DNA of 64,000 nucleotides from an uncultured bacterium. GTDB taxonomy: Bacteria > Desulfobacterota > GWC2-55-46. Positions 5,714 to 63,716 of this stretch are shown in pieces (position 1 is the first letter of the stretch; each line of letters starts with the position of its first letter). The DNA lies in assembly GCA_905339405.1 (NCBI GenBank), contig CAJPGC010000007.1:27739-91738 (forward strand), in the 5' to 3' direction. The notes beneath the pieces are model-generated. The model ran no database searches and was not told where the DNA came from. It saw nothing but the letters and a program-made list of their open reading frames with translations. The translations under genes were made by a program, and so were the position numbers.

Positions 5714-6847
5714 TTGACAGTGAAAATACCGACCGCGCTCGACCCGGAACTTTTCGCCACGGCGCTCGATACGCTGCCCTTCAAATATTACATAGTCGAT
5801 AAAGACCTGAACGTCCTTTTCTGGAACAGGAAAGGCGAGGAAGGCCCTTATGGCGTCAGGCAGGAAGACGCTGTCGGCAAGCATCTTGAAGCCGTTCTGG
5901 CAATAAACAGGGCGCACGTGAGCTCCCCGAAGCCGATACCCGAGATGGAGGCCGAGTTCAGGGAGGTCTTCGAAAAGGGGAGTATCATCTCCTCCGAGGA
6001 GTCTTCAGTACTCAAAAGCGGCGAGAAAAGATATTACAGGATAACGAAAACCCCTCTTCGCGGCGAAGACGGCGATGTTGCGCATACGGCCGTCATAATC
6101 GAGGACATCACGGACCAGAGAAGGCTTGAGTCGATGCTCATAGCCAAGGAGAAGCTTTTCGCCCTCGAGGACCTGGCTTCCGGTATCGCGCACCAGATAA
6201 ACAACCCCCTTTCAACGATGATGCTGTGCTCGGAATCGATGCTGAACGAGGTACGCAAGGGCGCGGTGTGCGACCCCGAGGCCGCGCTGAGGTTCGAGCA
6301 TTATCTTGAGATGACCTGCAAGCAGATTTCAAGGTGCAAGCAGGTCTCGAACATGCTGGTGGATTTCGGCAGCAACGAGGCCGGTAAAAAGGGCAGGACC
6401 GATGTGAACAAATTGCTCGGCGAGGCGGTTTCTCTCCTTAAATCGAGCAAAAGGTTCTCTGTCCCGTCAGTGGAAAAGGAGCTTTCAGCGGACATCCGGA
6501 CCATAACGGCAAGCGAGCCGCACTTGAGGCAGGTATTCTTGTCCATCCTTGTCAATGCCTTCGAAGCTGTGGACGGCAAGGCGGGCGGCGCAATAAGGGT
6601 TTCCACGTTCATGTCGGGCGAGGGGCAGAAAAAAGAAGTCGCCGTTGCCGTCCAGGACAACGGGAGCGGAATGGAGCGGGAAAAACTGCGCAGGATTTTC
6701 ACTCCGTTCTTTACGGCCAAAGGCGGCTCCCACGCGGGCCTTGGTCTTTCGGTTGCGCACCAGATAGTCTCCGGGCACGGCGGCAGGATAGAAGTCGAAT
6801 CAGAAGCCGGGAAGGGGAGCACGTTCACCGTGCTCCTCCCGTCCTGA
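5714..6847 (+). CDS. PAS-domain sensor histidine kinase
   Basis: PAS region, H-box (ASGIAHQINNPL) and HATPase_c motifs (DNGSGM, GGSHAGLGL). Confidence 0.8.
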   Translation: MTVKIPTALDPELFATALDTLPFKYYIVDKDLNVLFWNRKGEEGPYGVRQEDAVGKHLEAVLAINRAHVSSPKPIPEMEAEFREVFEKGSIISSEESSVLKSGEKRYYRITKTPLRGEDGDVAHTAVIIEDITDQRRLESMLIAKEKLFALEDLASGIAHQINNPLSTMMLCSESMLNEVRKGAVCDPEAALRFEHYLEMTCKQISRCKQVSNMLVDFGSNEAGKKGRTDVNKLLGEAVSLLKSSKRFSVPSVEKELSADIRTITASEPHLRQVFLSILVNAFEAVDGKAGGAIRVSTFMSGEGQKKEVAVAVQDNGSGMEREKLRRIFTPFFTAKGGSHAGLGLSVAHQIVSGHGGRIEVESEAGKGSTFTVLLPS

Positions 6848-6858: not shown

Positions 6859-8211
6859 ATGGACTCTCAGAAGAGGAAAATAAGGGTATGCGTCATAGAT
6901 GACGAGGAGGCCCTTGTCGGCGTGCTCAAAGAGGAGCTGGCCAGGGAGGGCTTCGAAGTCGCCGCTGCCTTGAACGGTAGCGACGGCATAAAGCTCCTTG
7001 AGCACAAGCCCTTTGACGTCTGCCTACTCGACCTCAATATGCCGGGACTTAACGGCCTTGACGTGCTCGGCAAGGCCGCCCAGCAGGCTATCCCTACCGA
7101 GTTCATAGTCCTTACTGCTTGCGCCACTGTGCAGACGGCTGTCGAGTCCATAAGGCTCGGCGCGTACGATTACCTCACTAAGCCATGCAACCTGGACAGG
7201 ATAGTCTTCCTTATAAAAAAGGCACATGAGAAAAGGTGCATGCGCCAGGAGAGCCTGATACTGAAGCGCATGACCGAGGCAAGGGGCGCCAGGATAGCCA
7301 CGGCCAGCAAGGCGATGCTCCAGGTCATAAAAGAAGCCGAAAAAGTGGCCGGCACTGAGGCTCCTGTGCTCATACTCGGAGAAAGCGGGACAGGCAAGGA
7401 GGTCATGGCGGAGTTCATCCATGCCAATTCAAGCCGCTCCGAGGGGCCGTTTATCGTATTCAATTCGGCAGCCATACAGGAGAACCTTTTCGAGAGCGAG
7501 CTTTTCGGGTATGAAAAGGGCGCGTTCACCGGGGCCAACTCATCCAAGGAAGGGCTCTTCGAGCTGGCGGACGGAGGGACGCTGTTCCTTGACGAGATAG
7601 GCGAGGTCCCTCAGCAGATGCAGGCGAAGCTTCTGAGGGCCATAGAGAAAGGGACTTTCTACAAGGTCGGCGGCACGAAGGAGATACGCGTTGACATAAG
7701 GGTGCTGAGCGCGACGAACAAGGACCTGCCCGGGATGGCTAAGGGAAACGCGTTCAGGGATGACCTTTACTACAGGCTCAGCAGCATCACCCTGACGCTG
7801 CCGCCGCTGCGTGAAAGGAGGGAAGACATCAAGCCGATTGTCGAGGAACTGCTGGCGCGCCTCCCTGCCGGATACACAAAGAGCATCGATGATGCCGCGC
7901 TCGAGCTCATGGCAAGGCATGACTGGCCCGGCAACATAAGGGAGCTTCAAAACGTAGTCAACAGGGCTGCCATCCTTTCCGATTCAGACCGGATCGGGCC
8001 GGGAGACCTTCCGCCTGAGTTCAAGGACGGCCCCGTAAACCAGGCGCGTCCCGCCCAAAGCGGCGGACTGCTGTCTTTGTGCGACCTTGAAAGGGAGCAC
8101 ATAATAAGAGTCCTCGGCCACACGGCGGGGCAGAAGAAAAAGGCCGCCGGAATACTCGGAATAGACGTAAAGACCCTTTACCGCAAACTCAAGCAATACG
8201 GGATATCCTGA
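6859..8211 (+). CDS. Sigma-54-dependent response regulator (NtrC family: REC, AAA+, Fis HTH)
   Basis: REC domain; Walker A GESGTGKE; GAFTGA sigma-54 contact motif; C-terminal HTH. Confidence 0.85.
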   Translation: MDSQKRKIRVCVIDDEEALVGVLKEELAREGFEVAAALNGSDGIKLLEHKPFDVCLLDLNMPGLNGLDVLGKAAQQAIPTEFIVLTACATVQTAVESIRLGAYDYLTKPCNLDRIVFLIKKAHEKRCMRQESLILKRMTEARGARIATASKAMLQVIKEAEKVAGTEAPVLILGESGTGKEVMAEFIHANSSRSEGPFIVFNSAAIQENLFESELFGYEKGAFTGANSSKEGLFELADGGTLFLDEIGEVPQQMQAKLLRAIEKGTFYKVGGTKEIRVDIRVLSATNKDLPGMAKGNAFRDDLYYRLSSITLTLPPLRERREDIKPIVEELLARLPAGYTKSIDDAALELMARHDWPGNIRELQNVVNRAAILSDSDRIGPGDLPPEFKDGPVNQARPAQSGGLLSLCDLEREHIIRVLGHTAGQKKKAAGILGIDVKTLYRKLKQYGIS

Positions 8212-8324: not shown

Positions 8325-8339
8325 TGGCACGCCGTTTGC
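8325..8339 (+). promoter_or_regulatory. Sigma-54 (-24/-12) promoter
   Basis: TGGCAC-gccgt-TTGC exactly matches the TGGCAC-N5-TTGC(A/T) consensus, 16 nt upstream of the ATG at 8355. Confidence 0.55.
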
Positions 8340-8354: not shown

Positions 8355-8717
8355 ATGAGATTCCTTATCGTAGACGATGACCGCTACATGATGACCCTGG
8401 TCGCCTCCATCCTCAAGAAGCATAAGGTCGAGGTCGTAAGCCATTCAAACATAGGCGACGCGCTCCGGAACCTCATAGAAGAGGATTTCGACGGGGTGCT
8501 GCTGGACCTGCATCTGCCCGGCATGGACGGGCTCAGCGCAATCCCGCTCGCCAGGCAGATAAGGCCGGAGATAAACATAGGACTGATGACCGGAGATACG
8601 AGCCCGGAGGTGCGCGCGAGGGCCCTTACAGGCGGAGCCGACTTCTTTTTTCAAAAGCCCGCCGACCTGAATAACCTTTGGGAAGTCATCAGGGGCTGCA
8701 CGAGAAAGGAGAATTAG
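8355..8717 (+). CDS. Single-domain response regulator (CheY-like receiver)
   Basis: REC motifs (LIVDDD, phospho-acceptor D in VLLDLHLPGMDG, T/K downstream). Confidence 0.8.
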   Translation: MRFLIVDDDRYMMTLVASILKKHKVEVVSHSNIGDALRNLIEEDFDGVLLDLHLPGMDGLSAIPLARQIRPEINIGLMTGDTSPEVRARALTGGADFFFQKPADLNNLWEVIRGCTRKEN

Positions 8718-9212
8718 ATGTCAAAGGTCCTGCAGCTTGTCGGCTTCAGAAATGGAGATGAGTTCTTCGGAGTACCCATAAGCAAGGTCAGGGAGATAGT
8801 AAGGGTGCCGGAGATTACGCCCGTTCCGGATATGCCCGAGTTCCTCAAAGGAGTTATTAACTTGAGGGGCAGGATTGTCGCGGTGGTCGACATGAGCAGG
8901 CGTCTGGGGACGGCAGGCCCCGGGGCCAAAAAGGCGAACCGGGTGCTGATACTCGAGTTGGGCGGCAGCCTTACGGGGCTCATAGTCGATTCAGTATCGG
9001 AAATAGTAAAAATCGACGAGGAGTCAATAGAGCCGCCGCCCGAGATGATATCGTCCATCGGGGCGGAATACGTGACCGGAGTCGGCAAGCTCAAGGACAG
9101 GCTTTTCATCCTTCTGGAGATAGACAAGCTCATGAAGCCGGAGGAGATGCTCAGGGTCAGGGCGGCTGACAGGACAGACGGCGCTGAAGATGCGGTTTCG
9201 GCCGCCGGTTGA
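8718..9212 (+). CDS. cheW: Chemotaxis coupling protein CheW
   Basis: CheW-like domain (FGVPISKVREIV, VINLRGRIVAVVD). Confidence 0.85.
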   Translation: MSKVLQLVGFRNGDEFFGVPISKVREIVRVPEITPVPDMPEFLKGVINLRGRIVAVVDMSRRLGTAGPGAKKANRVLILELGGSLTGLIVDSVSEIVKIDEESIEPPPEMISSIGAEYVTGVGKLKDRLFILLEIDKLMKPEEMLRVRAADRTDGAEDAVSAAG

Positions 9213-9263
9213 CGCGGGTACCAGCCCGTTTTGAACGCGGGCTTTTAAATTTCCACGGAGGCG

Positions 9264-11210
9264 ATGATGACTAAGATAGGCAGGAAATTGCTCCTCGGTT
9301 TCATGGTGATTATCGCGCTGACGATAGGGTTCAGCGGGATAATTTACCTTTTGATGGGCAAGCTCTCGGGCAGTATCGCGGAGATGAACGAGTACGGCGA
9401 GCAGCAGGCCGCTGCCGGGGATTTGAGTTACAGCATCACCTGGCTGACCATGCCTGGCAACGATTACATCATAACCGGAGAAAAAAAATATCTGGACGAG
9501 TTTAACAGCCAGTCGCGCCAGGTCGACGGCGACTTCAGGAAAATGGAGGCCCTTGACCTCTCTGAAGAGGAAAAAGAGCTTGTAAGGGACCTGCACGCGT
9601 TCTCCGACGGCGTCAAGGCGTCCGGGCAGAAGATCTTCGAGATAGAGCGTCCGGTGGGCGACCCGGCCGCCGCCGAGCTCATGAAGGAGATGGACTACAA
9701 ATACGCGGCCCCGGCCGCTGAAAAGCTGATGGAACTTGTCGGCATGATAAAAGACAAGAGGGCCGTTGCCAGCAAGAACGCGGCAGACGCCAGGTTCATG
9801 ATGAATATGACCATCGTCGCCGGGGCGTTCCTCACCGCCTGCATTTCCATCATGATAGCCTTCCTCATAGCGCGTTCAATCTCCAGGCCCATAGGAGAGA
9901 TATCCGAGGCGGCCCGGAAGATATCAAGAGGCGAGCTGGACAGCGACGTCTCCGTGAAGTCGAACGACGAGATAGGTGTCCTTGCGGATTCTTTCAGGGG
10001 GATGATCCAGTACCTGAAGGGAATGGCGCATACCGCCGAGGCCATAGCTGAGGGCGACCTCACAAGGGAGGTGGAGCCGAAGTCTGAAAAAGACGTTCTA
10101 GGCAACGCCTTCAACAGGATGATAAAGGGGCTCGGCAGCATAGTAAGCCAGGTAAGGAACGGCTCCGAGCAGATAGCCTCCGCCTCTGCGGAGGTTGCGG
10201 CCTCGAGCGAGCAGACAAGCAAAAACGGCGAGACCGCCTCGACCGCAGTCGAGGAGATAACCTCGACGATGCACGAGATGAGCGCCAACATCCAGAACGT
10301 CGCCAGGAGCATACAGTCACAGTCGCAGTTCGTGGTTGAGACTTCGACTTCGATTGAGCAGCTGATAGCCTCGATAGAAAGGGTCGCGGTCAACGCCAAG
10401 AGGCTGGTCGAGCTGGCGATGGAGAGCAACGAGGCTGTGACCTCCGGCAGGATGGCCGTCGACGTCTCCTCCGACGGCGTGAGGAACATCATCCAGGTCA
10501 TAACCAAGTCGGCGGATACGATAAAGGCCCTGGGCGTCAGGACGGAGGACATAGGCAGGATAATCGACGTCATTGACGACATAGCCGAGCAGACCAACCT
10601 GTTGGCGCTGAACGCCGCGATAGAGGCCGCCAGGGCCGGTGAGCATGGCATGGGGTTCGCGGTCGTGGCAGACGAGGTCAGAAACCTGGCCGAGCGATCT
10701 GCCAAATCTACCGCCGAGATATCGGCCCTCATCTACGGGATACAGAAGGACGCCGCTGGCGCGGTGCAAAACGTCGAGAAAAACGTAGAGATAGTCGGCA
10801 ACGCGTTGAGGCTCTCGGACGACGTTGTTGAGTCGCTACGGAAGATAGATTCTTCCGTGAGCGAGGTGGCGAGATATTCGCAGGAGATAGGCGCTGCAAC
10901 CGCGGAGCAGGCATGCGGGTGCGGCGAGATAACGAAGGCCGTGAGCAAGCTCAACGACATAACCCAGGAGATAAGCTCCTCGGCGGACGAGCAGGCCTCC
11001 GGCACGGAGCAGGTCGTAAAAGGCGTGGAGAAGCTCCGCGAGATGATCCAGCAGAACACGGCCAGCGCGGTGCAGCTCGCCGCAGCGGCCGAGCAGATGA
11101 ACAGCCAGTCGGAATCCCTCAGCGTCACAGTGGGCAGGTTCGTCGTCGAGGAGCAGGAGGTCGCTCCCGTACTGAAGAACAAGAAGCTGAAACTGGTGGC
11201 GGCCATCTGA
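9264..11210 (+). CDS. Methyl-accepting chemotaxis protein (2 TM, periplasmic sensor, HAMP, MA domain)
   Basis: Two TM helices flank a ~160-aa sensor region. Highly conserved MCP signalling box [35 protein letters not shown]. Confidence 0.9.
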
Positions 11211-11232
11211 GCCCGTATAGGAACAGGGGATA

Positions 11233-12096
11233 GTGTTGATGCAAACGACGATATTCCAGACAGCTGACGCCAACGCCTGCATGAGCGACGACGAATTTCT
11301 GCTCCTCCGCAACCTCGTGTACCAGGAGAGCGGGTTGTGGCTCAAGGAGGAGAAAAAGAGCTTTATCGCCCACAGGGCATTGAAGCGGATGAAGGGCAGG
11401 AACATACCAAGTTATTTCAGGTACTACAAGCTTTTAACCGACAAGGACGGCGGAAAAGACGAGCTCCGCGGTTTCCTTGACGACCTGACAATAAACGAAA
11501 CGTCCTTTTTCCGGAACAAGCCCCAGATGGACCTTTTTGCCGAGGTCGTGCTCCCCAAGCTCCTTGCCAAGAAAAGGGAGCAGGGCTCATTTAGCTTGAG
11601 GCTCTGGAGCGCGGGCTGCTCGACCGGGCAGGAGCCGTACTCACTGGCGATAGCCATAAGGCACTCGCTACTGGACTTCAGGAACTGGAGGATAACCATC
11701 CTTGCCTCGGACCTGAGCCTCTCGGCCCTGGAGACGGCGCAGGCCGGGTTTTACGGCGCGGCGAAAATGGAGGGCGTGGAAAGGAAGTTCGTGGACGCGT
11801 ACTTCCGCAAGGCCGACGGCGGGTACGCTGTCTCAGAGGAGATAAGGAAGCTCGTGGTCTTCGATTACCACAACCTCATGAACGAGAACGGCGAAAAGGA
11901 CTTCGACGTGATTTTCTGCAGGAACGTGCTTATCTATTTTGACGAGCAGACGCAGAAAAAGGTAATCGAACGGTTTGAGAAGGCGCTCGCCCCCGGAGGC
12001 TATCTGTTCCTGGGCCACAGCGAGACGCTCCAGGGCATAAACGACCATTTCGTATTCATGCACCACAACAGGGGAACGGCGTACCTGAAAAAATGA
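11233..12096 (+). CDS. cheR: Chemotaxis protein methyltransferase CheR
   Basis: CheR motifs ETSFFRN and SAGCSTGQEPYSLA (SAM-binding). Confidence 0.9.
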   Translation: MLMQTTIFQTADANACMSDDEFLLLRNLVYQESGLWLKEEKKSFIAHRALKRMKGRNIPSYFRYYKLLTDKDGGKDELRGFLDDLTINETSFFRNKPQMDLFAEVVLPKLLAKKREQGSFSLRLWSAGCSTGQEPYSLAIAIRHSLLDFRNWRITILASDLSLSALETAQAGFYGAAKMEGVERKFVDAYFRKADGGYAVSEEIRKLVVFDYHNLMNENGEKDFDVIFCRNVLIYFDEQTQKKVIERFEKALAPGGYLFLGHSETLQGINDHFVFMHHNRGTAYLKK

Positions 12097-12123
12097 CGGC
12101 CGTCCGCCGGAGGCTCGGGCTCC

Positions 12124-14181
12124 ATGGACCATGAAAACGACACGATAATGCTGACTGAAGAGGAGCTCGACGCCCTCAAGGAGACCTTTTACGCCCAGGC
12201 CCTTGAGATGAGCGAGGAGCTTACCGCGGAGATACTCTCGCTTGAAGCCAACGATTGCGCGGGCGAGCCGGTCAAACGCATAAAAAGGTACTTCCATACC
12301 TTAAAAGGCGATTCATCCTCCATAGGGCTCAAGGCCATCTCCGAGCTCATACACAGCGCCGAGGACTTGATGGCCGCCCTGGAGGACAGGAGTATCGCGC
12401 TGGACGGGGCCGTCTTGGAGGTTCTGCTGAAGTCCGTGGACGAGATTGAAAAGGCGATAAGCGCCGACCGCTTAGGCTCCAAGCACGAAATTCCCACACG
12501 CCTGAAAGAGGATATGGAGCAGCTGCTGGGGAAGGCGCGCGGGACCCCACGGCTTGCGATGACGGAATATGAAGAGCTCGTCCTTTCGACCAGCCTGGCG
12601 GAGGGCATGAAAATATATAGGCTCACGCTGGAGTTCTCCGGCGACTGCGTGATGAAGTCCGCCAGCGCGCTCCTTCTATTGCAGTACCTGTCCAGCGAGA
12701 TGGAGGCGATAAGGGTCAGCCCTTCACCCGAGGACCCGGCAATAGAGTCGGCCCGGTTCTTCGAATGCATCGCCGCGAGCAAGAGGCCCGCCCATGAGCT
12801 CAAAAAGCTCTGCCTGATACCGGGGGTGACTTCAAAGGCCGCGTGCGAGGAGCTCGACGCAGCTTCAATCGTAGCTTCTCCTGAAAAAGCCGGGACTGAA
12901 ACGCCCGTCGACAGCGTTGACAGGGGTCTTGACAAGGCGGCTCCGGCGACCATCAGGGTGCTTTCCGAGCGAGTCGACCAGATGATGGACCTCGTCGGCG
13001 AGCTCGTGATGGGCCGCTCCATGATAGAGGAGCTCGTCGGCAGGTTCGAGGCGCGCTACCCCAAGGACGAACTCGTGCACGGGTTTGTAAAGGCCAGGTC
13101 GTTCATCTCCCGCAGCTTGAGCGACCTTCAGAGGTCGGTCATGTCTATAAGGATGATACCCGTTGAGAAGGTCTTCAGGCGTTTCCCCAGGATGGTCAGG
13201 GACCTCAGCAATTCGAGCGGCAAGGAGATAAGCCTTCTTCTTAAGGGCGAGCGCACCGAGATAGACAAGGCGCTCGTCGACGTCATAGGCGAGCCCCTGC
13301 TGCACATCATAAGGAACGCCGTGGACCACGGGATGGAGACTTCCGCGGATAGGAAAAAAGCAGGCAAGCCTGCCGAGGGCACAATAACCGTAGAGGCATG
13401 CCACAGGGACAGCGAGATAGTCATACGGGTAGCGGACGACGGCAGGGGCATGGACGCGGGCAGGCTTAAGGAGAAGGCCGTGTCGATGGGGTATGTAAGC
13501 CCTGAGCAGGCTGGCGCAATGGAGGACAGCGAAGCCTTGCGTCTCATATTCATACCTGGTTTTTCAACAGCCGAAAAGGTGAGCGGCATCTCGGGGCGCG
13601 GCATAGGCATGGACATCGTAAAGGAGACCGTCGAAGGGATGAGGGGTTCGGTTTCGGTCGTCTCCTCACCTGGCAAGGGGACAGAGTTCACGCTCAGGTT
13701 CCCGCTTACGCTTTCGATAATGAGGGCCGTTCTCGTAAGGGCGGGAGGTACCATGTACGCGCTCCCGCTCGGTTCGGTCGCCGATATAAAGAGGGTCCGT
13801 CCCCATGACATAGATTCTCTGACCGGAATGGACGTGCTGAATTTGAAAGGCGGCCCGCTTCCCCTTACCGGCATAGACGGCCACGGTGCGGAAAACAGAG
13901 CCGGCCTCAGGCGCTCCAAGGCGTTCGTCCTTACCCTGAAACACGGGGGCAGGAAGGTCGGGCTCGTCGTGGACTCCCTCGCGGGCGAAGAAGAGCTCGT
14001 CGTAAAGGCTGTGGACGACGCGATTGTCTCCACGCCCCTGGTGAGCGGAGCGTCCATCCTCGGAAACGGAAAAGTCGTTTTGATATTGAATATAGGCGAG
14101 CTCATCTCCAGGACCCTCACAAACCCCGAATCGCTCGGATACAGGCGTTTTGAGCGCAAACCCACAGGTACAAATGGCTGA
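12124..14181 (+). CDS. cheA: Chemotaxis histidine kinase CheA
   Basis: HPt (YFHTLKGDS), dimerisation, HATPase and C-terminal CheW-like domains. Confidence 0.9.
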   Translation: MDHENDTIMLTEEELDALKETFYAQALEMSEELTAEILSLEANDCAGEPVKRIKRYFHTLKGDSSSIGLKAISELIHSAEDLMAALEDRSIALDGAVLEVLLKSVDEIEKAISADRLGSKHEIPTRLKEDMEQLLGKARGTPRLAMTEYEELVLSTSLAEGMKIYRLTLEFSGDCVMKSASALLLLQYLSSEMEAIRVSPSPEDPAIESARFFECIAASKRPAHELKKLCLIPGVTSKAACEELDAASIVASPEKAGTETPVDSVDRGLDKAAPATIRVLSERVDQMMDLVGELVMGRSMIEELVGRFEARYPKDELVHGFVKARSFISRSLSDLQRSVMSIRMIPVEKVFRRFPRMVRDLSNSSGKEISLLLKGERTEIDKALVDVIGEPLLHIIRNAVDHGMETSADRKKAGKPAEGTITVEACHRDSEIVIRVADDGRGMDAGRLKEKAVSMGYVSPEQAGAMEDSEALRLIFIPGFSTAEKVSGISGRGIGMDIVKETVEGMRGSVSVVSSPGKGTEFTLRFPLTLSIMRAVLVRAGGTMYALPLGSVADIKRVRPHDIDSLTGMDVLNLKGGPLPLTGIDGHGAENRAGLRRSKAFVLTLKHGGRKVGLVVDSLAGEEELVVKAVDDAIVSTPLVSGASILGNGKVVLILNIGELISRTLTNPESLGYRRFERKPTGTNG

Positions 14182-15271
14182 CCAGCGGAAGACTAAGGTA
14201 ATGGTCGTCGATGATTCTGCCCTGATGAGGCGGATGATACCCCTTATCCTGGAGAAAAGCCCGGAAATCGAGGTCGTGGCCACTGCGGTGGACGGAAGGT
14301 TCGCCCTGAGCAAGGCTGAAAAAAACAGGCCGGACGTCATCACCCTCGACATGGATATGCCAGGCATGGACGGCCTTACAACCTTGAAGCACATAGTGCG
14401 CGATTTCGGCATCCCGGTAGTTGTCGTAAGCTCCATGACGACCAGGGGGGCCGAGCTCACCATGAAGGCCTTTGAGCTCGGCGCGATGGACGTCATCGCT
14501 AAACCTGCCGACGCCATCTCGGTGAACATAAAAGAGATTGCCGAGGAACTTATTGAAAAGGTGCTCGCCATCGGCAGAAGCTCGGTCTCGAAGCTCCACC
14601 TCGATGTCCCTGCGGAAAAACTCCCTGAGCCGAGGCCGGCTGTCTGCTCAAGGGCAAAAACGGCCGAGCAGGTGATCGCGATCGGGATATCTACCGGTGG
14701 GCCCAACGCGCTCTCCTATATGCTGCCGCTCCTTCCGGCGGACCTTCCTGCTGCCGTGCTCGTGGTCCAGCACATGCCTGCCGGTTTTACTGAGGTGTTC
14801 GCTTCCCGCCTTAACAAGGCCTGCGCCCTCGAGGTCAGGGAAGCGCGGGACGGCGACCTTGTCACGCCGGGGCGGGTGCTGATAGCGCCGGGCGACTACC
14901 ACATGAAGATAAAGAAAACCGCCCTCAGCACAATCGTGGTCCTGAGCTCGCGCCCGGCTGTGAACGGCCACAGGCCTTCGGCCGACGTCCTCTTTAACTC
15001 CGTTGCCGCCGAGTACGGCCCGAGCTCGGTGGGCGTCATTATGACGGGAATGGGAGAGGACGGAGCCGAGGGGATAGGCGAGATAAAGAAGGCCGGCGGG
15101 CGTACCCTTGCGCAGGATGAAAACACCTCGGTAGTTTTCGGGATGCCAAAGGCCGCCATAAGAAGAGGGTATGTCGACAGGGTCATCCCGCTCGAGCGGA
15201 TGGCGGAGGCGGTTGCCGGCGAGATAACTTGGAAAAGAGGAGGACGGCAAATTGCGGCCAATCACAAGTGA
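14150..15271 (+). CDS. cheB: Chemotaxis methylesterase/deamidase CheB (REC + CheB_methylest)
   Basis: N-terminal REC and C-terminal methylesterase domain (GISTGGP, VVQHMPAGFT). In-frame alternative ATG at 14174 overlaps the cheA stop by 8 nt. Confidence 0.9.
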   Translation: MSANPQVQMADQRKTKVMVVDDSALMRRMIPLILEKSPEIEVVATAVDGRFALSKAEKNRPDVITLDMDMPGMDGLTTLKHIVRDFGIPVVVVSSMTTRGAELTMKAFELGAMDVIAKPADAISVNIKEIAEELIEKVLAIGRSSVSKLHLDVPAEKLPEPRPAVCSRAKTAEQVIAIGISTGGPNALSYMLPLLPADLPAAVLVVQHMPAGFTEVFASRLNKACALEVREARDGDLVTPGRVLIAPGDYHMKIKKTALSTIVVLSSRPAVNGHRPSADVLFNSVAAEYGPSSVGVIMTGMGEDGAEGIGEIKKAGGRTLAQDENTSVVFGMPKAAIRRGYVDRVIPLERMAEAVAGEITWKRGGRQIAANHK

Positions 15272-15653
15272 AGTAGATAAAAGCGCGTACAGTTTCCTGA
15301 TAGTCGACGATTCTCTTTTCGCGAGGAAAAACATCGCCAAGGCGGTCGAAGCCATAGGCGGCAACGTGGTCGGGGAGGCCGTGAACGGAAGGGAAGCCGT
15401 AGAGAAGTACTTTGAGCTCAGGCCTGACCTCGTGCTCATGGACATCTCGATGCCGGAGATGGAAGGCATCGAGGCGCTCGGGCTCATCAGGGAGCGCGAC
15501 AGCTCGGCCAAGGTCGTCATTGTGAGCTCGCTGGGCCATCAGGAGATGGTCAAGAAGGGGATATCCCTCGGCGCGAAACACTTCATCTCAAAACCCGTGG
15601 TGCTCGAGAAGGCGGCGGACATCATCAAATTCGTGTTGGCGCAGAAAGGCTGA
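15252..15653 (+). CDS. cheY: CheY-like response regulator
   Basis: REC domain (FLIVDDS, VLMDISMPEMEG, SKP). Confidence 0.8.
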   Translation: MRPITSEVDKSAYSFLIVDDSLFARKNIAKAVEAIGGNVVGEAVNGREAVEKYFELRPDLVLMDISMPEMEGIEALGLIRERDSSAKVVIVSSLGHQEMVKKGISLGAKHFISKPVVLEKAADIIKFVLAQKG

Positions 15654-15656
15654 TTC

Positions 15657-16124
15657 ATGAGGATAGAGTTCATAAACCCTTTTGTCGAGGCCGCCTTGAG
15701 CGTCCTCGACGCCGTACTCCAGGAGCCCTCTTCGAAGGGCGAGATGACGCTGGAGAGGGGGCTGGCGCAGCGGGAAAGCTTTTCAGTCAGCTTCGGCCTC
15801 ACAGGCGGCATCGAAGGCATGGTACTGTTCGACGCCAACGAGCGGACAGCGATGGACATAGCCGGAGCCATGAACGGGCGCAGGTTTGAGGAGATGGAGC
15901 CGCTGGTGCTGGACAGCATGGCAGAGCTGATGAACATGATAATAGGCAGCAGCGTCAGCTTGCTCAACGAAAGCGGCTTCAGGTTCGAGCTGACGCCGCC
16001 GTCGATACTGTGGGGAAGGGACATGAAGCTTTTCCCTATCAATCTCGAGACGCTTAAAGTCCCTCTTCACTCGCCGAAGGGCGTTTTGACCATCAGCATT
16101 TCAATGAAGCCGAGGGTAGGTTGA
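15657..16124 (+). CDS. cheX: CheX-family chemotaxis phosphatase
   Basis: CheX-like composition (FINPF..., MNMIIGSS) directly after cheY. Confidence 0.7.
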   Translation: MRIEFINPFVEAALSVLDAVLQEPSSKGEMTLERGLAQRESFSVSFGLTGGIEGMVLFDANERTAMDIAGAMNGRRFEEMEPLVLDSMAELMNMIIGSSVSLLNESGFRFELTPPSILWGRDMKLFPINLETLKVPLHSPKGVLTISISMKPRVG

Positions 16125-16174
16125 ATGCCGATGACGGCCCGGATAAAAGACGGTAAACGCGAGGGGCGTACCCT

Positions 16175-17359
16175 ATGCAGCTGACCGGCAACCTTGAAGA
16201 CATAGGCCTGGGTGAGATTTTCCAGATACTCGGCTTCAGCGGCAGGTCCGGAGTCCTGCGCCTGCGCGACACGAAGACCGAGGGGCTGGTCGTCTTCAAG
16301 GAAGGGAAAATAATAAAGGCCTTTTCAAGCCAGCTGCGCTTCTCCGTCGGCGAGAAGCTCCTAGAAGGCGCGAAGATAAGCGCCGCGCAGCTGGAAGAAG
16401 GGCGCAAAAAACAGCGCGAGAGGGGCTTTGTCGAGCCGCTTGGAAGACTGTTGGCCAGGAGCTTCAACGTGCCAGCCGAATGCGTCGAGGCAGCCGCCAC
16501 GGAGCTCATACAGAGTGCCGTCCAGGGCTTTTTTTCATGGAGAGGCGGGTACTTCGAATTCGACCTGGGGGATTACGCCGAGACGCCCGACGTAATAAAA
16601 GACGACGCGCTCCAGCACACGCTGAAGACAGGGTTGAACCCGCAGTTCCTCGCAATGGAAGGGTTGAGGGTGGCGGACGAGGCCGACAGGGACGGCCAGG
16701 GCGCGTCTTCTGCCCCTCAAGCCGTAGAGCGGGCTCAGGAAGAAAACAACTCTTTTTGCTCGGTAAGCGAGATGCTGCATGAATTGGGAGCCGATGAGCA
16801 GTTCCTCGAGACGAAGGGTTTTCAGGCCGGTTCCACCAGCAGGGGGCTTGCGGTCCTCAAGGAGATGCTCGAAGAGCTGGCCAGGCCGCTGACGATGAAC
16901 GAGATACTGCTTCTGATATTGAGGTTCAGCAGCGAGTTCATAAACAGGTCCGTGGTCTTTGTGATGAAGGACGGCCATATAGCGGGGTTCGGGCAGTTCG
17001 GCATAGAGCTTGACGGCGAGCAGCCCGACAAAAGGATAAGGGGAATAAAGATACCAGACAGAGGGCGGTCAATACTCGCGGAAGCTGTCGAGAAGAGGAA
17101 AATAATAGTCAGGGAACTCGAAAAAACAGAGTGGGACGAGTACCTGATGGATCAGCTTGGCGGAAGCAGGCCCATTGAGGCCTTCGCCGCGCCGGTCATC
17201 CTTCAGAACAGGGTCGTGATGGTGCTGTACGGCGACAACGTGCCCGAGGCCAGAAAGCTCGACGGGCTTTCCGTACTGGAGACCTTTCTGGCGCAGACGA
17301 GCATAGCCATGGAGCGGATGATATTGATGAGCGGCTCCGCGAACGCAAGCTGGTTTTAA
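16175..17359 (+). CDS. DUF4388-domain protein with C-terminal GAF-like region
   Basis: N-terminal DUF4388 signature (GNLEDIGLGEIFQILGFSGRSGVLRL...GLVVFKEGKII), a domain frequently embedded in Frz/Che-like clusters. Confidence 0.65.
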   Translation: MQLTGNLEDIGLGEIFQILGFSGRSGVLRLRDTKTEGLVVFKEGKIIKAFSSQLRFSVGEKLLEGAKISAAQLEEGRKKQRERGFVEPLGRLLARSFNVPAECVEAAATELIQSAVQGFFSWRGGYFEFDLGDYAETPDVIKDDALQHTLKTGLNPQFLAMEGLRVADEADRDGQGASSAPQAVERAQEENNSFCSVSEMLHELGADEQFLETKGFQAGSTSRGLAVLKEMLEELARPLTMNEILLLILRFSSEFINRSVVFVMKDGHIAGFGQFGIELDGEQPDKRIRGIKIPDRGRSILAEAVEKRKIIVRELEKTEWDEYLMDQLGGSRPIEAFAAPVILQNRVVMVLYGDNVPEARKLDGLSVLETFLAQTSIAMERMILMSGSANASWF

Positions 17360-17372
17360 AAGGGGTCTTTAG

Positions 17373-18239
17373 ATGGTCATCTCGTGCCCGGCGTGCTCTA
17401 AAAAATTCAACTTCAACGGCGAGGCGAAAAACCACGCACGGTTCAGGTGCACGGCCTGCGGGGCTGTTTTCAGCATGGGCGGGGAGCCCTCTGCAAAAAC
17501 AGCTGCGGGACAGAAGGCTTTCAAGGTCTTGGCCGCAACCGAAAACAACTCGATAGAGCGTGCAGTGAAAGCCGCCCTTGCAGACGGCAGGATAGAGCTT
17601 TCATTGGCGGCAGACGGCAACCAGGTTTTTGAAAAGATTTCCATCGATAAACCGCACCTGCTTATACTGGACGCCGCCATACAGGGAATGTTCAGCTTTA
17701 CGCTTTGCGAGAAGATTAAGAGCGACCAGTCGCTTCAGGACATAAAGATAATCCTGACGTCCGCGGCGTTTAATAAAAGCCGGTATAAGCGCAGGCCCTC
17801 GGAGCTGTTCGGGGCCGATTGCTATATCGAAGCCCATCAGCTCGAGGACGCCCTGGCAGGAAAAGCTGGCGCACTGCTCGGGGTCGAGCTTCGCGGGAGC
17901 GTGGCGGATGGCGTCGGGCCTGCGGGCAACGCGAGGGAGAACTCAGGCCCTGAAAATGGACTCGAGGAGAAGGACGCGAAAAAAACAGATGAAGACGGCA
18001 AGGCAAAACGGCTGGCGCGGGTCATAGCCGCCGACATCTTGTTGTATCACAGGAAAAAGCTCAGCCAGAAAGTTGAAAAACAGGACGCATCTGTCCTGTT
18101 CAAAGAAGAGATAGACGAAGCCGTCAAGTACTTCAATAAGAGGCTCCCCGGAGCAGATATCGCGTACATCCACGCGGCGATAGAAGAGTGTCTCGATTCG
18201 ATGAACAAGACCATGGGCACGGAGGCTGCGAATTGCTGA
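17373..18239 (+). CDS. Zinc-ribbon (MJ0042-type CxxC...CxxC) protein with receiver-like domain
   Basis: N-terminal CPACSKKF...CTACGAVF zinc ribbon; central REC-like fold (HLLILDAAIQGM ... IILTSAA). Confidence 0.6.
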   Translation: MVISCPACSKKFNFNGEAKNHARFRCTACGAVFSMGGEPSAKTAAGQKAFKVLAATENNSIERAVKAALADGRIELSLAADGNQVFEKISIDKPHLLILDAAIQGMFSFTLCEKIKSDQSLQDIKIILTSAAFNKSRYKRRPSELFGADCYIEAHQLEDALAGKAGALLGVELRGSVADGVGPAGNARENSGPENGLEEKDAKKTDEDGKAKRLARVIAADILLYHRKKLSQKVEKQDASVLFKEEIDEAVKYFNKRLPGADIAYIHAAIEECLDSMNKTMGTEAANC

Positions 18240-18312
18240 GCTCGACGAGAGTGGCGTTGGCCCGCATTTTTGCAGCGCAAGGCGTTGATATTCGCACCGA
18301 AAGGAACTTGAT

Positions 18313-19182
18313 ATGAGCCTTCCGGAAAGAAGACCAGAGAGTCAGGAAAGCCCGGTAGAGCGGGAAAGCCGTCAGGGCGCACCGCGTTCCACAAAGGGCG
18401 TCGAGATGGTGACGATGCTCAAGAAGGGCCTCGAGTACACACAGGACCTCCTCAAGGAGAACGAATGGCTGAGGCAGACCGCCATCAAGCTTCAGGAGCA
18501 GAACCGGCTTCTTCAGGCAAGGGTCAAGGACCCTTGCCCCGGCGCTGACTCCGCCGAGTTGATGGAGAGGCTCAAGTCCTCGCAGCAGGAGAAGGCCGGG
18601 CTCGAGGAGCGGACAAAAGAGCTGGAGAGGGAAAACCAGGAGTTCGCCAACCGCTATGTCGAGATTGAAGAGCAGAACCAGATGCTCACCAACCTGTATA
18701 CGGCCAGTTTTCAGCTTCATTCATCCCTCGACTACAACGAAGTGCTCAGAGGAGTCACCGAGATAATCATAAACCTCATAGGCGCGGAGAGGTTCGCGGT
18801 CATGCTGCTCGACGAGAAATCCCTTGTCCTCACGGCGGTAGCGGCCGAGGGGATGGAGATGGAGGAAGTGCTTCCTGTCAAGGTGGGTGAAGGCGCCGTA
18901 GGCGCGGCGGTCTCTTCCGGAGAGGTCTTTTACGGCAGCGGTGAAGCCTCCGGCGGGAGCCCTCTGGTCTGCCTGCCGCTCAAAATAGGGGAGAAGGTCA
19001 TAGGCGTCATCGTCATCTACGACCTCCTCAGGCAGAAAGAAAAGTTCACGGAAATCGATTACGAGCTCTTCTCGATGCTTGGAGACCATACCGCTACCGC
19101 TCTGTTCAGCGCGAAGCTTTACACCGAGTCGGAGAGAAGGCTGTCGACCATACAGGGGTTCATAGACCTTATTACCAAGTAG
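18313..19182 (+). CDS. Coiled-coil / GAF-domain protein
   Basis: Long heptad-rich coiled coil followed by a GAF-like region (FAVMLLDEKSLVL...GVIVIYD). Possible alternative start at MVTMLKKG. Confidence 0.6.
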   Translation: MSLPERRPESQESPVERESRQGAPRSTKGVEMVTMLKKGLEYTQDLLKENEWLRQTAIKLQEQNRLLQARVKDPCPGADSAELMERLKSSQQEKAGLEERTKELERENQEFANRYVEIEEQNQMLTNLYTASFQLHSSLDYNEVLRGVTEIIINLIGAERFAVMLLDEKSLVLTAVAAEGMEMEEVLPVKVGEGAVGAAVSSGEVFYGSGEASGGSPLVCLPLKIGEKVIGVIVIYDLLRQKEKFTEIDYELFSMLGDHTATALFSAKLYTESERRLSTIQGFIDLITK

Positions 19183-19186
19183 GAGA

Positions 19187-19576
19187 ATGAAAATGAGTGA
19201 TTACCGCGTGCTTGTCGTTGAAGATTCTCCGACAATGTCGCAGCTTCTCAAGTTCACGCTCAGGAGGATAAAGGGGCTCGAGGTGGTGACGGCTAGCGAC
19301 GGGGTGGACGGGCTTAAAAAACTGGCCAATGCCAAATACGACCTAGTGCTCACGGACATAAACATGCCCCTCATGGACGGGCTCAAGCTCATAGGGCTTG
19401 TGAGGGGGGACGGCAACGGGACGAACAAGAGCGTTCCCATTGTGATAATTACGACCGAAGGGGAGGACGACGCCCGCAGGGAGGGGCTCGCGCTCGGCGC
19501 TACGTCATATATAACCAAGCCCATAAATTCGCGCGAGGTTATCGATACCGTGATGAAATGCCTCGGGGCCGCATAG
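19187..19576 (+). CDS. Single-domain response regulator
   Basis: REC motifs (VLVVEDSPT, LVLTDINMPLMDG, TKP). RBS ggagaatgaaaATG. Confidence 0.85.
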   Translation: MKMSDYRVLVVEDSPTMSQLLKFTLRRIKGLEVVTASDGVDGLKKLANAKYDLVLTDINMPLMDGLKLIGLVRGDGNGTNKSVPIVIITTEGEDDARREGLALGATSYITKPINSREVIDTVMKCLGAA

Positions 19577-20055
19577 GTTGACTGCCAGCAAGCCCCTTTT
19601 GCCTGAGGGGCCGCCCCCCTACATCAGTACAGGTCATCTGTTGAAAGCATTCTGGTAAAGTACCCCTACTGCCGCATACAGAGGTTTGGACGTGGACGAT
19701 GATATCTGTTCCTATCTCGTTATGGTAAGGGGCTTTTGGATCTGCAGCTTCAAGATCTCGGACGCGATGGAATGCCCGCTTCGCGAGCTTGGGAGGTGTC
19801 TTTACGCGCGCGGCCCCTTTAAGCCTGACCTGAATGATTGACCTTTCAGGGTTCTGCCAGAAACACTCAATTTTTCCAGATTTTTTAACCAAAAAAGCCG
19901 CCGGGCCCGCCTTGTTTTGTAACTAATATCATGGAGTTTTTTCCTCTGTTTCAGGTAAGCTGGACTGCGCTCGAAACAGGGCTGGAAAGAGCGTTTTTTC
20001 CGGGAGAAAAGCACTCGTACGGGACCGTCCAAACGGAGATGAAGGAGGGCTTTCG

Positions 20056-21015
20056 ATGGCGCAGAAAAAATCCAGAAAAAACTTGTATCTCTATGCCCTG
20101 GTTTTCGCGGTATCCGCTGCAGTCGGTCTTTTTCTCGCGAAAACGTCTCATGCCGGGGACCCGGCCGATGGAAAGACTGCATCAGTCGTCAGCAATTGGA
20201 AAGAGGGGGACAGCAAGGGCCTGACAGTCAAGATAGGCAAGCTGAAAGAGGCCAACGGCAGGCTGACGAACGAGGACATAACCTACGACGTCGACATAAA
20301 AGTCATCGGCGAGAGCGAAGACGGCTACACGGTCGAATGGGTCTACAACAACATCACCTACAGCGGAAGCAACCCGTTCGTCAAAAAGCTCTATAAGACG
20401 TCCGAGGGGCTCAAAATAGTATACACGACCGGCAAGGACGGGATGTTCAAGGAGCTTGTCAATTGGAAAGAGGTCCAGGAACATCTTTATAGCGCGCTCG
20501 ACCTGCTGGAAAACGAATTTCCAGACAACCAGGCCATAAAGGGCCTGATAAGCCAGTTCAAGGCGTTGTACTCTTCGAGGGACAGCATCGAGAGCACGCT
20601 CCGCGACATACAGATCTACCATTCGCCTTACGGAGGCGAATACACGCTTGGCGAGTGGACGAGCACCGAGACGACGCTGCCCAATCATCTCGGAGGCTAT
20701 CCTTTTCCCGCCGTCATCAAAACCGGCATGACTGAACTGGACCTCGCGAAGAACAGGTGCAAGATAGTCGCGACTCAGAAAATCGACGAGGAGAAGGCCG
20801 CCGCCGCCGTCAAAGAGTTCCTGCGCACCACTGCGGAGAAAAGCGGTGGACAGCAGCATTTCAACGGGGCCGGACAGTCTGGCGTAAGCATAAACGACGT
20901 TTTCGAGTATGACGTCGAATTGAACGGGGGATGGGTAAACAAGGCGTACTTCAAAAGAGAGACCAGGACCGGCCCGGCAAAAGGCGTCAATACATATGAG
21001 ATAACTCTCAAGTAA
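20056..21015 (+). CDS. Secreted hypothetical protein
   Basis: Strong RBS gaaggaggg and signal peptide (LYALVFAVSAAVGLFLAKTSHA). No recognisable domain. Confidence 0.55.
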   Translation: MAQKKSRKNLYLYALVFAVSAAVGLFLAKTSHAGDPADGKTASVVSNWKEGDSKGLTVKIGKLKEANGRLTNEDITYDVDIKVIGESEDGYTVEWVYNNITYSGSNPFVKKLYKTSEGLKIVYTTGKDGMFKELVNWKEVQEHLYSALDLLENEFPDNQAIKGLISQFKALYSSRDSIESTLRDIQIYHSPYGGEYTLGEWTSTETTLPNHLGGYPFPAVIKTGMTELDLAKNRCKIVATQKIDEEKAAAAVKEFLRTTAEKSGGQQHFNGAGQSGVSINDVFEYDVELNGGWVNKAYFKRETRTGPAKGVNTYEITLK

Positions 21016-21235
21016 AAATGTGAATGGCATGAGATACGCGCCAGGCGGGATGACTTTTCAAGTCATCCCGCCTGGCTTTTTTTCAGCCCGGGCCCGTTAC
21101 GCGCAAACGCTCGCAAAGGCTTTGTTTTTTCGGGTTGTTTGTGGTAAATCTTGGGTAGGGTACTCTGTTTTTTTCTCATAAGTTTTTGTACTTGCCGAGG
21201 CTTTTAAATTTTTAAGAAAGCGGGTCATAAAAAGC

Positions 21236-22315
21236 ATGAAAAAAGTGATTTTTGCGGCAGCGGCGTTGTTGATGTTTTCAGGCTGCTTTGGGGGGCCGAC
21301 TCCACTTATGAAGGCCTCTTTTGAGGGAAATAACGGCGAGGTGAAAAGCCTCCTTGAAAAGGGGGCGGACATCGATGAAAGAGGCACTTTGCCGAACGTT
21401 ACCGGGTACGCGCCTAAATACTGGCTCAAATCCACCGCGCTCATGGCTGCGGCGCATTACGGCCAGGACGCCACGGTCGACCTTCTGCTCTCGCGCGGCG
21501 CTGATATAAACGCTGAAAACTTCCTGTGTCTTTCAGCTGTCCACCTCGCGACCGTAAGCAAGAAGAAAGAGACCGTCAGCCTTCTGGTAAAAAAAGGCGC
21601 GAAATTGGAACCGGCTGACGCGTCCAGCGCGTGGTGCCATATTCACAGCACCCCTCTTCAAGTGGCGGCGTCAGAGGGCGATATTGAAATCGTAAAGCTC
21701 CTTGTCAGAAATGGCGCCGGTGTCGACACTGGAGGCTACTGCGGCTACAGCCCTCTATTGCTTGCCTCGTTGGAGGGGCACTATGAGACGGTTGAATACC
21801 TGCTCAAAAACGGGGCCGATGTGAAACTGAAATCACAAAACAAACTTGGATGCCAGGAGACTACTCCTCTGAAGATAGCCGAGGAAAAAGGGCATACAAA
21901 GGTTGTCAAGCTGCTGAAGGATGCCGCAGCAGGCGCGGTAGCCGTCAATAAGGTGATCGCCGCGCCTCCTGAAGACCCCTTGGAGGCGGCAGCCTTCGAG
22001 GCAGAGGCCAGAAAGTACAGGGAGAGCGCCGTGAAACCGGCTTTCCCGGAAGAGGCAAGGAAGTACAAGGCCCAGGCCGAGTTCGCCTTACAGCAGAAAA
22101 AATTTGAGAACGCGGTCGATTTGTACGGCAGGGCCCTGAAGGCCGCCCCGTGGTGGCCTGACGGCCATTTCAACAGGGCGCTCATACTCGGGGAGCTCTC
22201 GAGGTATGAAGAGGCAATCAGGGAGATGAAGCGCTATCTCCTCCTTGCTCCCGACGCGCCGGACGCCAGGGACGCGCAGGACAGGATATACCAGTGGGAG
22301 AGCGTTGCGGAATAG
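21236..22315 (+). CDS. Ankyrin-repeat / TPR lipoprotein
   Basis: Lipobox (LLMFSGC), at least five ankyrin repeats (G.TALM.AA..G....V.LLL..GADIN), C-terminal TPR-like helices. Confidence 0.8.
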   Translation: MKKVIFAAAALLMFSGCFGGPTPLMKASFEGNNGEVKSLLEKGADIDERGTLPNVTGYAPKYWLKSTALMAAAHYGQDATVDLLLSRGADINAENFLCLSAVHLATVSKKKETVSLLVKKGAKLEPADASSAWCHIHSTPLQVAASEGDIEIVKLLVRNGAGVDTGGYCGYSPLLLASLEGHYETVEYLLKNGADVKLKSQNKLGCQETTPLKIAEEKGHTKVVKLLKDAAAGAVAVNKVIAAPPEDPLEAAAFEAEARKYRESAVKPAFPEEARKYKAQAEFALQQKKFENAVDLYGRALKAAPWWPDGHFNRALILGELSRYEEAIREMKRYLLLAPDAPDARDAQDRIYQWESVAE

Positions 22316-22369
22316 GCTGGCGGGGCCACTGAGCAGGCCTGAACGCAGTAGTTCGGAGTAGAGGACGTC

Positions 22370-57340: not shown

Positions 57341-57354
57341 GGCGGGATGAATCG

Positions 57355-61926: not shown

Positions 61927-61947
61927 GTCGAGAAAGAAAAGGAGTTT

Positions 61948-63042: not shown

Positions 63043-63716
63043 CACACCATGAGCCTCGGCGAAGGTCATCTGGAGAAGCGGTAAACGTCGGCGGCGCAGA
63101 ACGCCTCATCTCCGCGCTTCTCGGCGGCTTCCTGGCACTTAAGGCTGCCAGAAAGGGCGGGCTGCTGAGGACTCTTGCCAGCGGGTATTTGGTGTACAGG
63201 GGCGCAACCGGCCACTGCGGGCTTTACAAGGCAGCCGGTATAAATACGGCTGAGGGCCGCGGGATAGTGCTCGACGAGACTGTGACCGTGAACAGGCCTG
63301 TCTCCGAGGTCTACGCCTTCTGGCGCAACCTCGAAAACCTGCCCGAGTTCATGGAGCACCTCAAGGAAGTGAACGTCATCGACAGGAAACGCTCCCACTG
63401 GGTCGCCGTTGTCCCGGGCGGAGCCCGCATAGAGTGGGACGCCGAGATAGTCGGAGAGAGCGAGAACGAATACATCGCCTGGCAGTCGCTGCCGTACTCA
63501 GACATTGAAACGCGCGGTTCAGTTGAATTCAGCGAAGCGCCCGGACACAGGGGCACCGTCATCAGGGTCCATATGCTCTACAACCTGCCGGGGGCGGGGA
63601 CGGCCGCAGTGGCGAGGCTTCTTGAGCATGTAACCTTCAGGCAGCTCCGCGGAGAGCTCCTGAGGTTCAAGGAGCTGATGGACGGCAAGGGGCCGGACAG
63701 GGCTATCGGAGAATAA
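63039..63716 (+). CDS. SRPBCC (cyclase/dehydrase-like) protein with N-terminal TM segment
   Basis: Polyketide_cyc2-like pattern (VTVNRPVSEVYAFWRNLENLPEFMEHL ... W.S). Confidence 0.6.
   Translation: MTHHEPRRRSSGEAVNVGGAERLISALLGGFLALKAARKGGLLRTLASGYLVYRGATGHCGLYKAAGINTAEGRGIVLDETVTVNRPVSEVYAFWRNLENLPEFMEHLKEVNVIDRKRSHWVAVVPGGARIEWDAEIVGESENEYIAWQSLPYSDIETRGSVEFSEAPGHRGTVIRVHMLYNLPGAGTAAVARLLEHVTFRQLRGELLRFKELMDGKGPDRAIGE

Follow-up and report, generated by a model that had tools for sequence, protein, structure and literature searches.

Many bacteria possess several chemotaxis-like (Che) systems, and most of their outputs are unknown, for example those of Esn in Geobacter and Che8 in Myxococcus. 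The target of the Frz pathway is believed to be the MglA/MglB polarity switch; Frz genes are not adjacent to mglBA, and neither in Myxococcus xanthus nor in Bdellovibrio is mglA encoded beside its signalling partners (PMC4316618). In the cyanobacterial Tax/Pix systems the output part is a PATAN domain, which binds PilB and PilC (bioRxiv 10.1101/2021.06.11.447907; PMC11181946); in Synechocystis, PATAN domains, which bind PilB/PilC, are sufficient to switch pilus-based phototaxis (bioRxiv 10.1101/2021.06.11.447907). PATAN genes are also known as occasional neighbours of mglA or mglB (PMC4316618). Here we analyze a chemosensory operon located at positions 8355-19576 of a 64-kb stretch of DNA (the window; contig CAJPGC010000007.1) from an uncultured member of the Desulfobacterota. 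Besides a che core, the operon encodes a PATAN-GAF protein (DUF4388), a Zn-ribbon protein with a degenerate receiver (REC), and a coiled-coil GAF protein (ccGAF). Judging from the sequences, the same accessory set is attached to two different che cores, and in sister lineages of the window it is joined to mglB-mglA, which makes for a concrete and testable output candidate.

The operon comprises 12 open reading frames, all on the + strand and tightly packed, with gaps of 0-73 nucleotides (nt) or short overlaps, in the order CheY, CheW, methyl-accepting chemotaxis protein (MCP), CheR, CheA, CheB, CheY, CheX, PATAN (DUF4388), Zn-ribbon/receiver-like protein, coiled-coil GAF protein, and CheY. Domains were assigned with Pfam profiles, using NCBIfam models as a second source, and the Pfam E-values of the operon proteins rule out chance matches. 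With an MCP signalling domain, CheW, a five-domain CheA, and CheR/CheB, the cluster has the makeup of a bona fide Che pathway, and the operon as a whole is predicted to encode a complete, methylation-adapting chemosensory pathway. An earlier, sequence-only reading of this DNA had listed the core cheW-MCP-cheR-cheA-cheB-cheY together with CheX, DUF4388, Zn-ribbon/receiver-like, and coiled-coil GAF proteins, and we found every one of these by Pfam except the coiled coil, which is suggested by sequence composition and a weak leucine-zipper match. It had also counted three receivers in addition to cheY; all told, the operon encodes no more than three stand-alone receivers (of 120, 133, and 129 aa).

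Judged by gene order and published descriptions, the accessory proteins are shared with the beta-group cluster of Geobacter (cluster 5 of G. sulfurreducens, including GSU2220-2222, EsnB/ATPase/EsnC) and with Che8 of M. xanthus (MXAN_4751-4759). All of these systems contain PATAN-GAF, the Zn-ribbon protein with its degenerate receiver and, in some cases, ccGAF; all have CheA, CheW, CheR, CheB, and single-domain CheYs, and all are confined to the former delta-proteobacteria. The beta-group and Che8 clusters have no mcp gene or a divergent one, whereas the window has mcp. They start with the PATAN gene, in which a receiver lies between PATAN and GAF in Geobacteraceae (555-580 aa). Their CheA is devoid of P2, cheA is followed by the gene of an AAA ATPase, and they encode two CheW as well as a large HEAT-repeat protein, but no CheX. 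The window, in contrast, encodes a P2-containing CheA, one CheW, and CheX, with neither the ATPase nor the HEAT protein.

The label "Frz/Dif-like" given by the sequence-only reading does not hold as a statement of family membership. The MCP of the window has two transmembrane segments and a periplasmic domain of ~150 aa, CheA carries no receiver, there is no FrzZ-type dual receiver and no TPR extension on CheR, a single CheW is present, and both CheB and CheR are encoded. Frz, by comparison, features the cytoplasmic receptor FrzCD, the CheA-receiver fusion FrzE, the dual-receiver FrzZ, the CheR-TPR protein FrzF, and two CheW, and its operon lacks PATAN, Zn-ribbon, or GAF accessory genes; the likeness to Frz is that of a chemosensory pathway acting on the MglA/MglB switch, as is suggested here by mglBA in sister operons. 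With Dif of M. xanthus the window shares the Pfam layout of its CheA (Hpt-P2-dimerisation-HATPase-CheW without a receiver, as in DifE) and a phosphatase of the CheC/CheX superfamily. Dif, however, has a 44-heptad (44H) receptor with a tiny periplasmic loop, DifB, DifG (a CheC), and no CheB or CheR, whereas the window has an MCP with a periplasmic domain and longer arms, CheX instead of CheC, and both CheB and CheR (DifB was not searched for). The Tax/Pix operons are likewise chemotaxis-like operons with a PATAN protein and a plain CheY, but their PATAN carries a fused receiver, whereas in the window a GAF fold takes this place and all receivers are proteins of their own; moreover, Tax/Pix systems use CheA-receiver hybrid kinases and photoreceptors and have no CheX, Zn-ribbon protein, or ccGAF.

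In order to follow the accessory set, we scanned one genome per GTDB species, in which 309 stretches encode PATAN-GAF relatives (the best match has 53% identity), and examined the best 80 loci, annotating their flanks by phmmer with the window proteins as queries. Profiling of the DUF4388 and Zn-ribbon-receiver proteins against che clusters, an idea of the sequence-only reading, bore out their association: CheA was found in all 64 loci with informative flanks, and the Zn-ribbon protein lies within the flank in 45 of 68. Two layouts emerged. Type A, found in the window and in uncultured Thermodesulfobacteriota, reads Y-W-MCP-R-A-B-Y-X-PATAN-ZnREC-ccGAF-Y (Che letters; ZnREC, Zn-ribbon/receiver protein), and this order of 12 genes is kept in relatives with PATAN-GAF identities of only 45-55%; in a close relative whose PATAN-GAF is 96% identical, the whole cluster order and most of the flanks are kept. 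Type B, carried by Geobacteraceae and Desulfuromonadales including Geobacter hydrogenophilus and Geotalea, reads PATAN(-REC)-GAF, CheY, P2-less CheA, AAA ATPase, CheW, (CheY), CheW, ZnREC, HEAT protein, CheR, CheB, and sometimes ccGAF. In the type-B loci phmmer matches cover both halves of the accessory proteins, in agreement with Pfam for L006 and L010, and ccGAF orthologues occur in type-A clusters and in some type-B clusters. Against the window CheA, the type-B kinase scores only ~300 bits and a type-A orthologue 711 bits. The CheY beside PATAN best matches the last CheY of the window (CheY3) in 71 of 71 type-B loci; the other type-B CheY also best matches CheY3, and this preference may only reflect CheY3 being the most generic query. 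Within the literature searched, we found no published description of the type-A architecture, of the GAF fold behind DUF4388, or of a che-mglBA operon fusion.

The core of type A appears to be older than its accessory set. Identity among CheA homologues drops from at least 46% for type-A orthologues straight to 36-40%, and the closest CheA outside the Desulfobacterota belongs to Terriglobales (Acidobacteriota), at 37-38% identity. Two of these matches sit in MCP-CheW-CheR-CheA-CheB-CheY-CheX cassettes (L098, 6556-14353; L099, 6562-14351) that resemble the window in the order of the core genes, in the long MCP geometry, and in having a kinase and a sigma-54 activator alongside, but that lack the leading CheY and the PATAN-GAF/Zn-ribbon/ccGAF/CheY extension. 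The Terriglobales cassette looks like the ancestral core of the window operon. Because this core stands without the accessory genes, the accessory set was evidently added to an older core, and a role as output adaptor is plausible. Next to each of the two cassettes lie genes for a divergent GAF/PAS kinase of 1270 aa, for a receiver, and for a sigma-54 activator; a sigma-54-like element is located at position 6057 of L099.

In three type-A loci, mglB-mglA directly follows the last cheY on the same strand, at a distance of 50-170 nt (L004, 13763-14860; L095, 11918-12997; L096, 6365-7451). The PATAN-GAF proteins of these loci are mutually only 59-72% identical, and mglBA is the only recurrent gene pair appended to type-A operons. 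Against the M. xanthus proteins, MglA and MglB of L004 score 337 and 145 bits, respectively. In one type-B locus, mglBA lies 6 kb upstream.

The PATAN-GAF protein consists of a PATAN domain with a helical insert (residues 1-172; PF14332 covers residues 4-170 at 2e-22, with a profile of 122 positions), a disordered linker, and a C-terminal half with a GAF fold (residues 222-386) that Pfam misses; the C-terminal receiver fused to PATAN in PatA-type proteins is absent from the window protein. The helical insert matches the N-terminus of PilF/PilB. Spacing within the insert (16340-16500, residues ~55-110) fits the MshEN motif by which pilus ATPases bind cyclic di-GMP (c-di-GMP); the key first Arg is not conserved and the second repeat is degenerate, and nucleotide binding is doubtful. 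In the Zn-ribbon protein, the middle domain has a receiver fold with a weak REC match (29.3 bits, just below the Pfam cut-off of 30.2) and an incomplete pocket: D100 and the Ser are retained, whereas T-E replaces the acidic pair and no Lys stands at its position, close to which there is an invariant Glu. This degenerate receiver resembles that of FrzS in fold. We thereby add two annotations missed by sequence profiles, the GAF fold behind DUF4388 and the degenerate receiver. The GAF folds of PATAN-GAF and ccGAF were considered as possible paralogues, but are not detectably related (hhalign probability 0.6%). The interpretation offered by the sequence-only reading, an alternative output with the DUF4388 and Zn-ribbon-receiver proteins as output or adaptor modules, is thus supported in part, though not in its Frz/Dif label: the accessory proteins are integral to the operon, the two proteins are good output/adaptor candidates, and sister operons end with mglB-mglA.

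The operon also appears to have its own regulation. Upstream of the first cheY, TGGCACGCCGTTTGC is a perfect TGGCAC-N5-TTGC element with GG at -24, GC at -12, and the right spacing (Table 1), and it is the sole match in the window even with one mismatch allowed. Equivalent sigma-54 elements precede the first cheY in four independent type-A loci (L001/L002, L004, L092, and L095), in which PATAN-GAF has 50-96% identity to that of the window; the corresponding upstream stretches of the remaining scanned loci, nearly all type B, contain none. The operon is preceded by genes for a PAS kinase, syntenic in L001/L002 and divergently oriented in L004, and for an NtrC-type activator whose receiver keeps an intact Asp pocket; an NtrC-type activator gene adjoins the type-A clusters in L001, L004, and L092. 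Because the element recurs in type-A loci and the regulator pair lies immediately upstream, the che operon very probably depends on sigma-54 and on a two-component system of its own, and it is probably switched on by the adjacent PAS kinase/NtrC-type pair.

Given that PATAN binds PilB/PilC in Synechocystis and that sister operons are extended by mglBA, we see about an even chance that the operon encodes a sigma-54-controlled chemosensory pathway with an accessory output complex that addresses the pilus motor or an MglA-type polarity switch; the target, the binding, and the phosphotransfer are what we infer. The transmembrane MCP, with its periplasmic sensor and unusually long hairpin, would control CheA through CheW. 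CheA would phosphorylate CheB and up to three single-domain CheYs, and CheX would take the phosphate off again. A phosphorylated CheY would then act on a complex of PATAN-GAF, the Zn-ribbon pseudo-receiver, and ccGAF, the last CheY being the one that would belong to the accessory set. Through its PATAN domain and the Zn-ribbon protein, this complex might control a polar machinery, namely the type IV pilus motor and/or an MglA/MglB-type switch, and surface movement or colonisation would be governed instead of flagellar rotation. Polarity, type IV pili, or colonisation of surfaces would accordingly be the most likely output. Should this link hold, it would show how chemosensory signalling can be connected to a small-GTPase polarity switch in bacteria other than myxobacteria.

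Several points weigh against a pilus or polarity output. The clade of the window (at least 72% identity) has no mglBA extension: behind the last cheY lies a non-coding gap of 480 nt (19577-20055) without a predicted terminator, followed by an unrelated secreted protein. The 64-kb window contains no mglA, mglB, pil, or gliding gene, and tblastn revealed no remnants of mglA or mglB in it. Type B corresponds, by gene order (GSU2220 (CheW)-GSU2221 (ATPase)-GSU2222 (CheA) in G. sulfurreducens) and published descriptions, to the beta group (PMC2577667), the Esn genes GSU2220-2222 (PMC5585712), and che8 of M. xanthus (PMC2330069, PMC3945109). Of the systems with these accessory proteins, only Esn has a phenotype established by experiment; its genes are required for electrode colonisation, and the authors tied the pathway to c-di-GMP, through the diguanylate cyclase EsnD, and not to pili (PMC5585712). 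Finally, the core, with CheX, a P2-containing CheA, and a long MCP, resembles the formally flagellar classes, and its best CheA and CheY models are archaeal F1-type (CheA_Halo, 370 bits, for CheA; CheY_Halo, 95 bits, for CheY2).

A wider proposal is that PATAN-GAF, the Zn-ribbon pseudo-receiver, ccGAF, and a dedicated CheY form a portable output module that is used on at least two unrelated che cores of Desulfobacterota and that wires CheA into the MglA/MglB switch and/or the pilus motor. We put this forward tentatively, as possible and not as probable. If true, there would be a genomically encoded connection from Che to MglAB independent of Frz, and the module would supply the output that is still missing for Esn in Geobacter and for Che8 in Myxococcus.

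In another explanation, the pathway would regulate the biofilm matrix or the colonisation of surfaces by way of a second messenger or of gene expression, as has been suggested for Esn, Dif, and Wsp. The two GAF domains would bind a small molecule such as a cyclic nucleotide, and the accessory proteins would pass the signal to enzymes encoded elsewhere instead of to the pilus or polarity apparatus. Esn mutants fail at electrode colonisation and the pathway is linked to EsnD (PMC5585712); for the beta-group cluster, a connection with expression of the extracellular matrix is indicated by preliminary data (PMC2577667); and the module contains two GAF folds. Polysaccharide genes are present as well: a GDP-mannose synthesis gene follows the operon in L008/L009, and in the window an O-acylation cassette lies 4.5 kb behind the operon and glycosyltransferase genes form a cluster. 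These flanking genes, however, are not conserved across lineages, and the type-A clusters are all devoid of GGDEF, EAL, HD-GYP, PilZ, and DNA-binding output domains. Since the known PATAN partners are parts of the pilus motor and mglBA is the sole pair to recur behind type-A operons, we regard a matrix output as somewhat doubtful, while noting that it partly overlaps with the pilus or polarity reading, as pili and polarity likewise drive colonisation.

Ordinary flagellar chemotaxis of an F1/F2-like type, in which one CheY binds the switch, CheX ends the signal, and the extra proteins tune the assembly, localisation, or adaptation of the array, is unlikely in our view. It would account for the full adaptation set, the P2-containing CheA, and the cheY-cheX pair, which is found in spirochaete and Thermotoga systems; it would also fit the MCP of ~48 heptads, as 48H receptors couple with class F2 (bioRxiv 10.1101/2022.05.07.491037), and the occurrence of the same core alone in Terriglobales. 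On the other hand, the accessory set also accompanies the quite different Esn/Che8-type core, for which a flagellar role is not known (PMC5585712), three lineages carry mglBA at the end of the operon, and the promoter is of the sigma-54 type with a dedicated two-component system, not of the flagellar sigma-28 type. As the sequence-only reading stated, the window contains no flagellar genes, although 64 kb say little about the rest of the genome, and none was found in the retrieved flanks of the relatives either. That four or five unrelated genes merely adjoin a che operon at its end, as the gaps of 50-73 nt 5' of the PATAN and ccGAF genes and the Acidobacteriota core without accessory genes might suggest, is highly improbable, given the order kept at 45-55% PATAN-GAF identity, the pairing of PATAN-GAF with CheA in all informative loci, the receiver gene that closes the operon after the accessory genes, and the lack of any predicted terminator or promoter between core and accessory genes.

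The functional residues of the core proteins were also inspected. The phospho-accepting His58 of CheA sits in an HTLKG motif, and CheY1-3 as well as the CheB receiver have a full phospho-acceptor pocket, with equivalents of D12/E12, D13, D57, T/S87, and K109; CheY1 keeps D12, D13, D57, T87, and K109, and CheY3 has E12, D13, D57, T87, and K109. The active-site motif of CheX phosphatases has the consensus D/S-x3-E-x2-N, followed by a Pro ~22 residues further on. The CheX of the window contains D86-SMA-E90-LM-N93 (D-x3-E-x2-N) and Pro114/115, 21-22 residues past the Asn. In the MCP, transmembrane segments at residues 9-31 and 182-204 enclose the periplasmic domain and are followed by tandem HAMP domains, and the hairpin tip at G459/E460 is canonical, reading EAARAGE. 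Alignment with Tsr, anchored at V297 to V270, E460 to E391, and F626 to F515, shows each arm to be 42 residues (6 heptads) longer than in Tsr, which gives a hairpin of ~48 heptads by these anchors. An assignment to class 40H, based on a gapless alignment of the central 250 residues with PcaY, was withdrawn because of these 42 extra residues per arm.

The features of the operon and of its upstream regulators are collected in Table 1. Gene calls of 365 aa in relatives make the ATG at 14174 the probable start of CheB. The 51-nt gap between cheW and mcp holds a terminator-like GC hairpin with a T-run (9223-9243), which could attenuate transcription within the operon.

Table 1 Features of the chemosensory operon and its upstream region (positions in the window).
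Feature	Positions	Strand	Evidence
PAS-HisKA-HATPase sensor kinase, probable partner of adjoining activator	5714..6847	+	Pfam
NtrC-type sigma-54 activator REC-AAA+-HTH_8, probable che-operon activator	6859..8211	+	Pfam Sigma54_activat 5e-68
Sigma-54 -24/-12 promoter TGGCAC-N5-TTGC	8325..8339	+	16 nt 5' of first ATG
CheY1, single-domain receiver, 120 aa	8355..8717	+	Pfam REC 1e-21
CheW coupling protein	8718..9212	+	Pfam CheW 2e-40
MCP, transmembrane, two HAMP domains	9264..11210	+	Pfam 5e-45
CheR methyltransferase, 287 aa, without TPR extension	11233..12096	+	Pfam CheR 1e-67 + CheR_N
CheA kinase P1-P2-P3-P4-P5 (Hpt-P2-dimerisation-HATPase-CheW), no REC fusion	12124..14181	+	Pfam
CheB methylesterase, N-terminal receiver	14150..15271	+	Pfam CheB_methylest 5e-71 + REC
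CheY2, single-domain receiver, 133 aa, directly 5' of cheX	15252..15653	+	Pfam REC 3e-25
CheX-type CheY~P phosphatase	15657..16124	+	Pfam CheX 8e-16; NCBIfam CheX_Thtogales 8e-21
PATAN-GAF protein (DUF4388)	16175..17359	+	Pfam DUF4388/PATAN 2e-22
Zn-ribbon (4 Cys) + atypical receiver + conserved C-terminal helical domain	17373..18239	+	Pfam Zn_ribbon_4 30.9 bits
ccGAF: coiled-coil-like N-terminus (residues ~36-135) + GAF (139-264)	18313..19182	+	Pfam GAF_3 1e-15
CheY3, single-domain receiver, 129 aa, final operon gene	19187..19576	+	Pfam REC 1e-26

The remainder of the 64-kb window encodes housekeeping functions and polysaccharide or lipid genes. Behind the operon, positions 20056-21015 encode a 319-aa protein that matches no family and has an N-terminus resembling a signal peptide. 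It is conserved at this place in the relative with 96% PATAN-GAF identity, and its gene is followed by a strong terminator with a 17-bp stem (21040-21076). Positions 21236-23851 encode an ankyrin-plus-TPR repeat protein and then a 493-aa protein without a Pfam or NCBIfam match; these two genes are missing from the 96% relative (L001) and present in L092, whose Zn-ribbon protein equals that of the window. NCBIfam has no family for the PATAN, ccGAF, 319-aa, or 493-aa proteins of the window. Further downstream (24041-30377) lies a cassette reminiscent of Dlt-like O-acylation systems, with a syntenic counterpart in the close relative. It encodes a radical SAM/SPASM protein, a pair of AMP-binding enzymes of which the second bears a carrier-protein domain, a 306-aa protein without assignment, and an MBOAT acyltransferase. 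A polysaccharide-type cluster at 56213-63716 comprises an epimerase/dehydratase, a B12-binding radical SAM enzyme, a GT4 glycosyltransferase, and a tandem array of three paralogous Glyco_trans_1_2 genes. Among the relatives, L096 encodes an 835-aa protein that combines CheW and LysM, an unusual pairing, ~6 kb from its type-A cluster (12173-14085, - strand).

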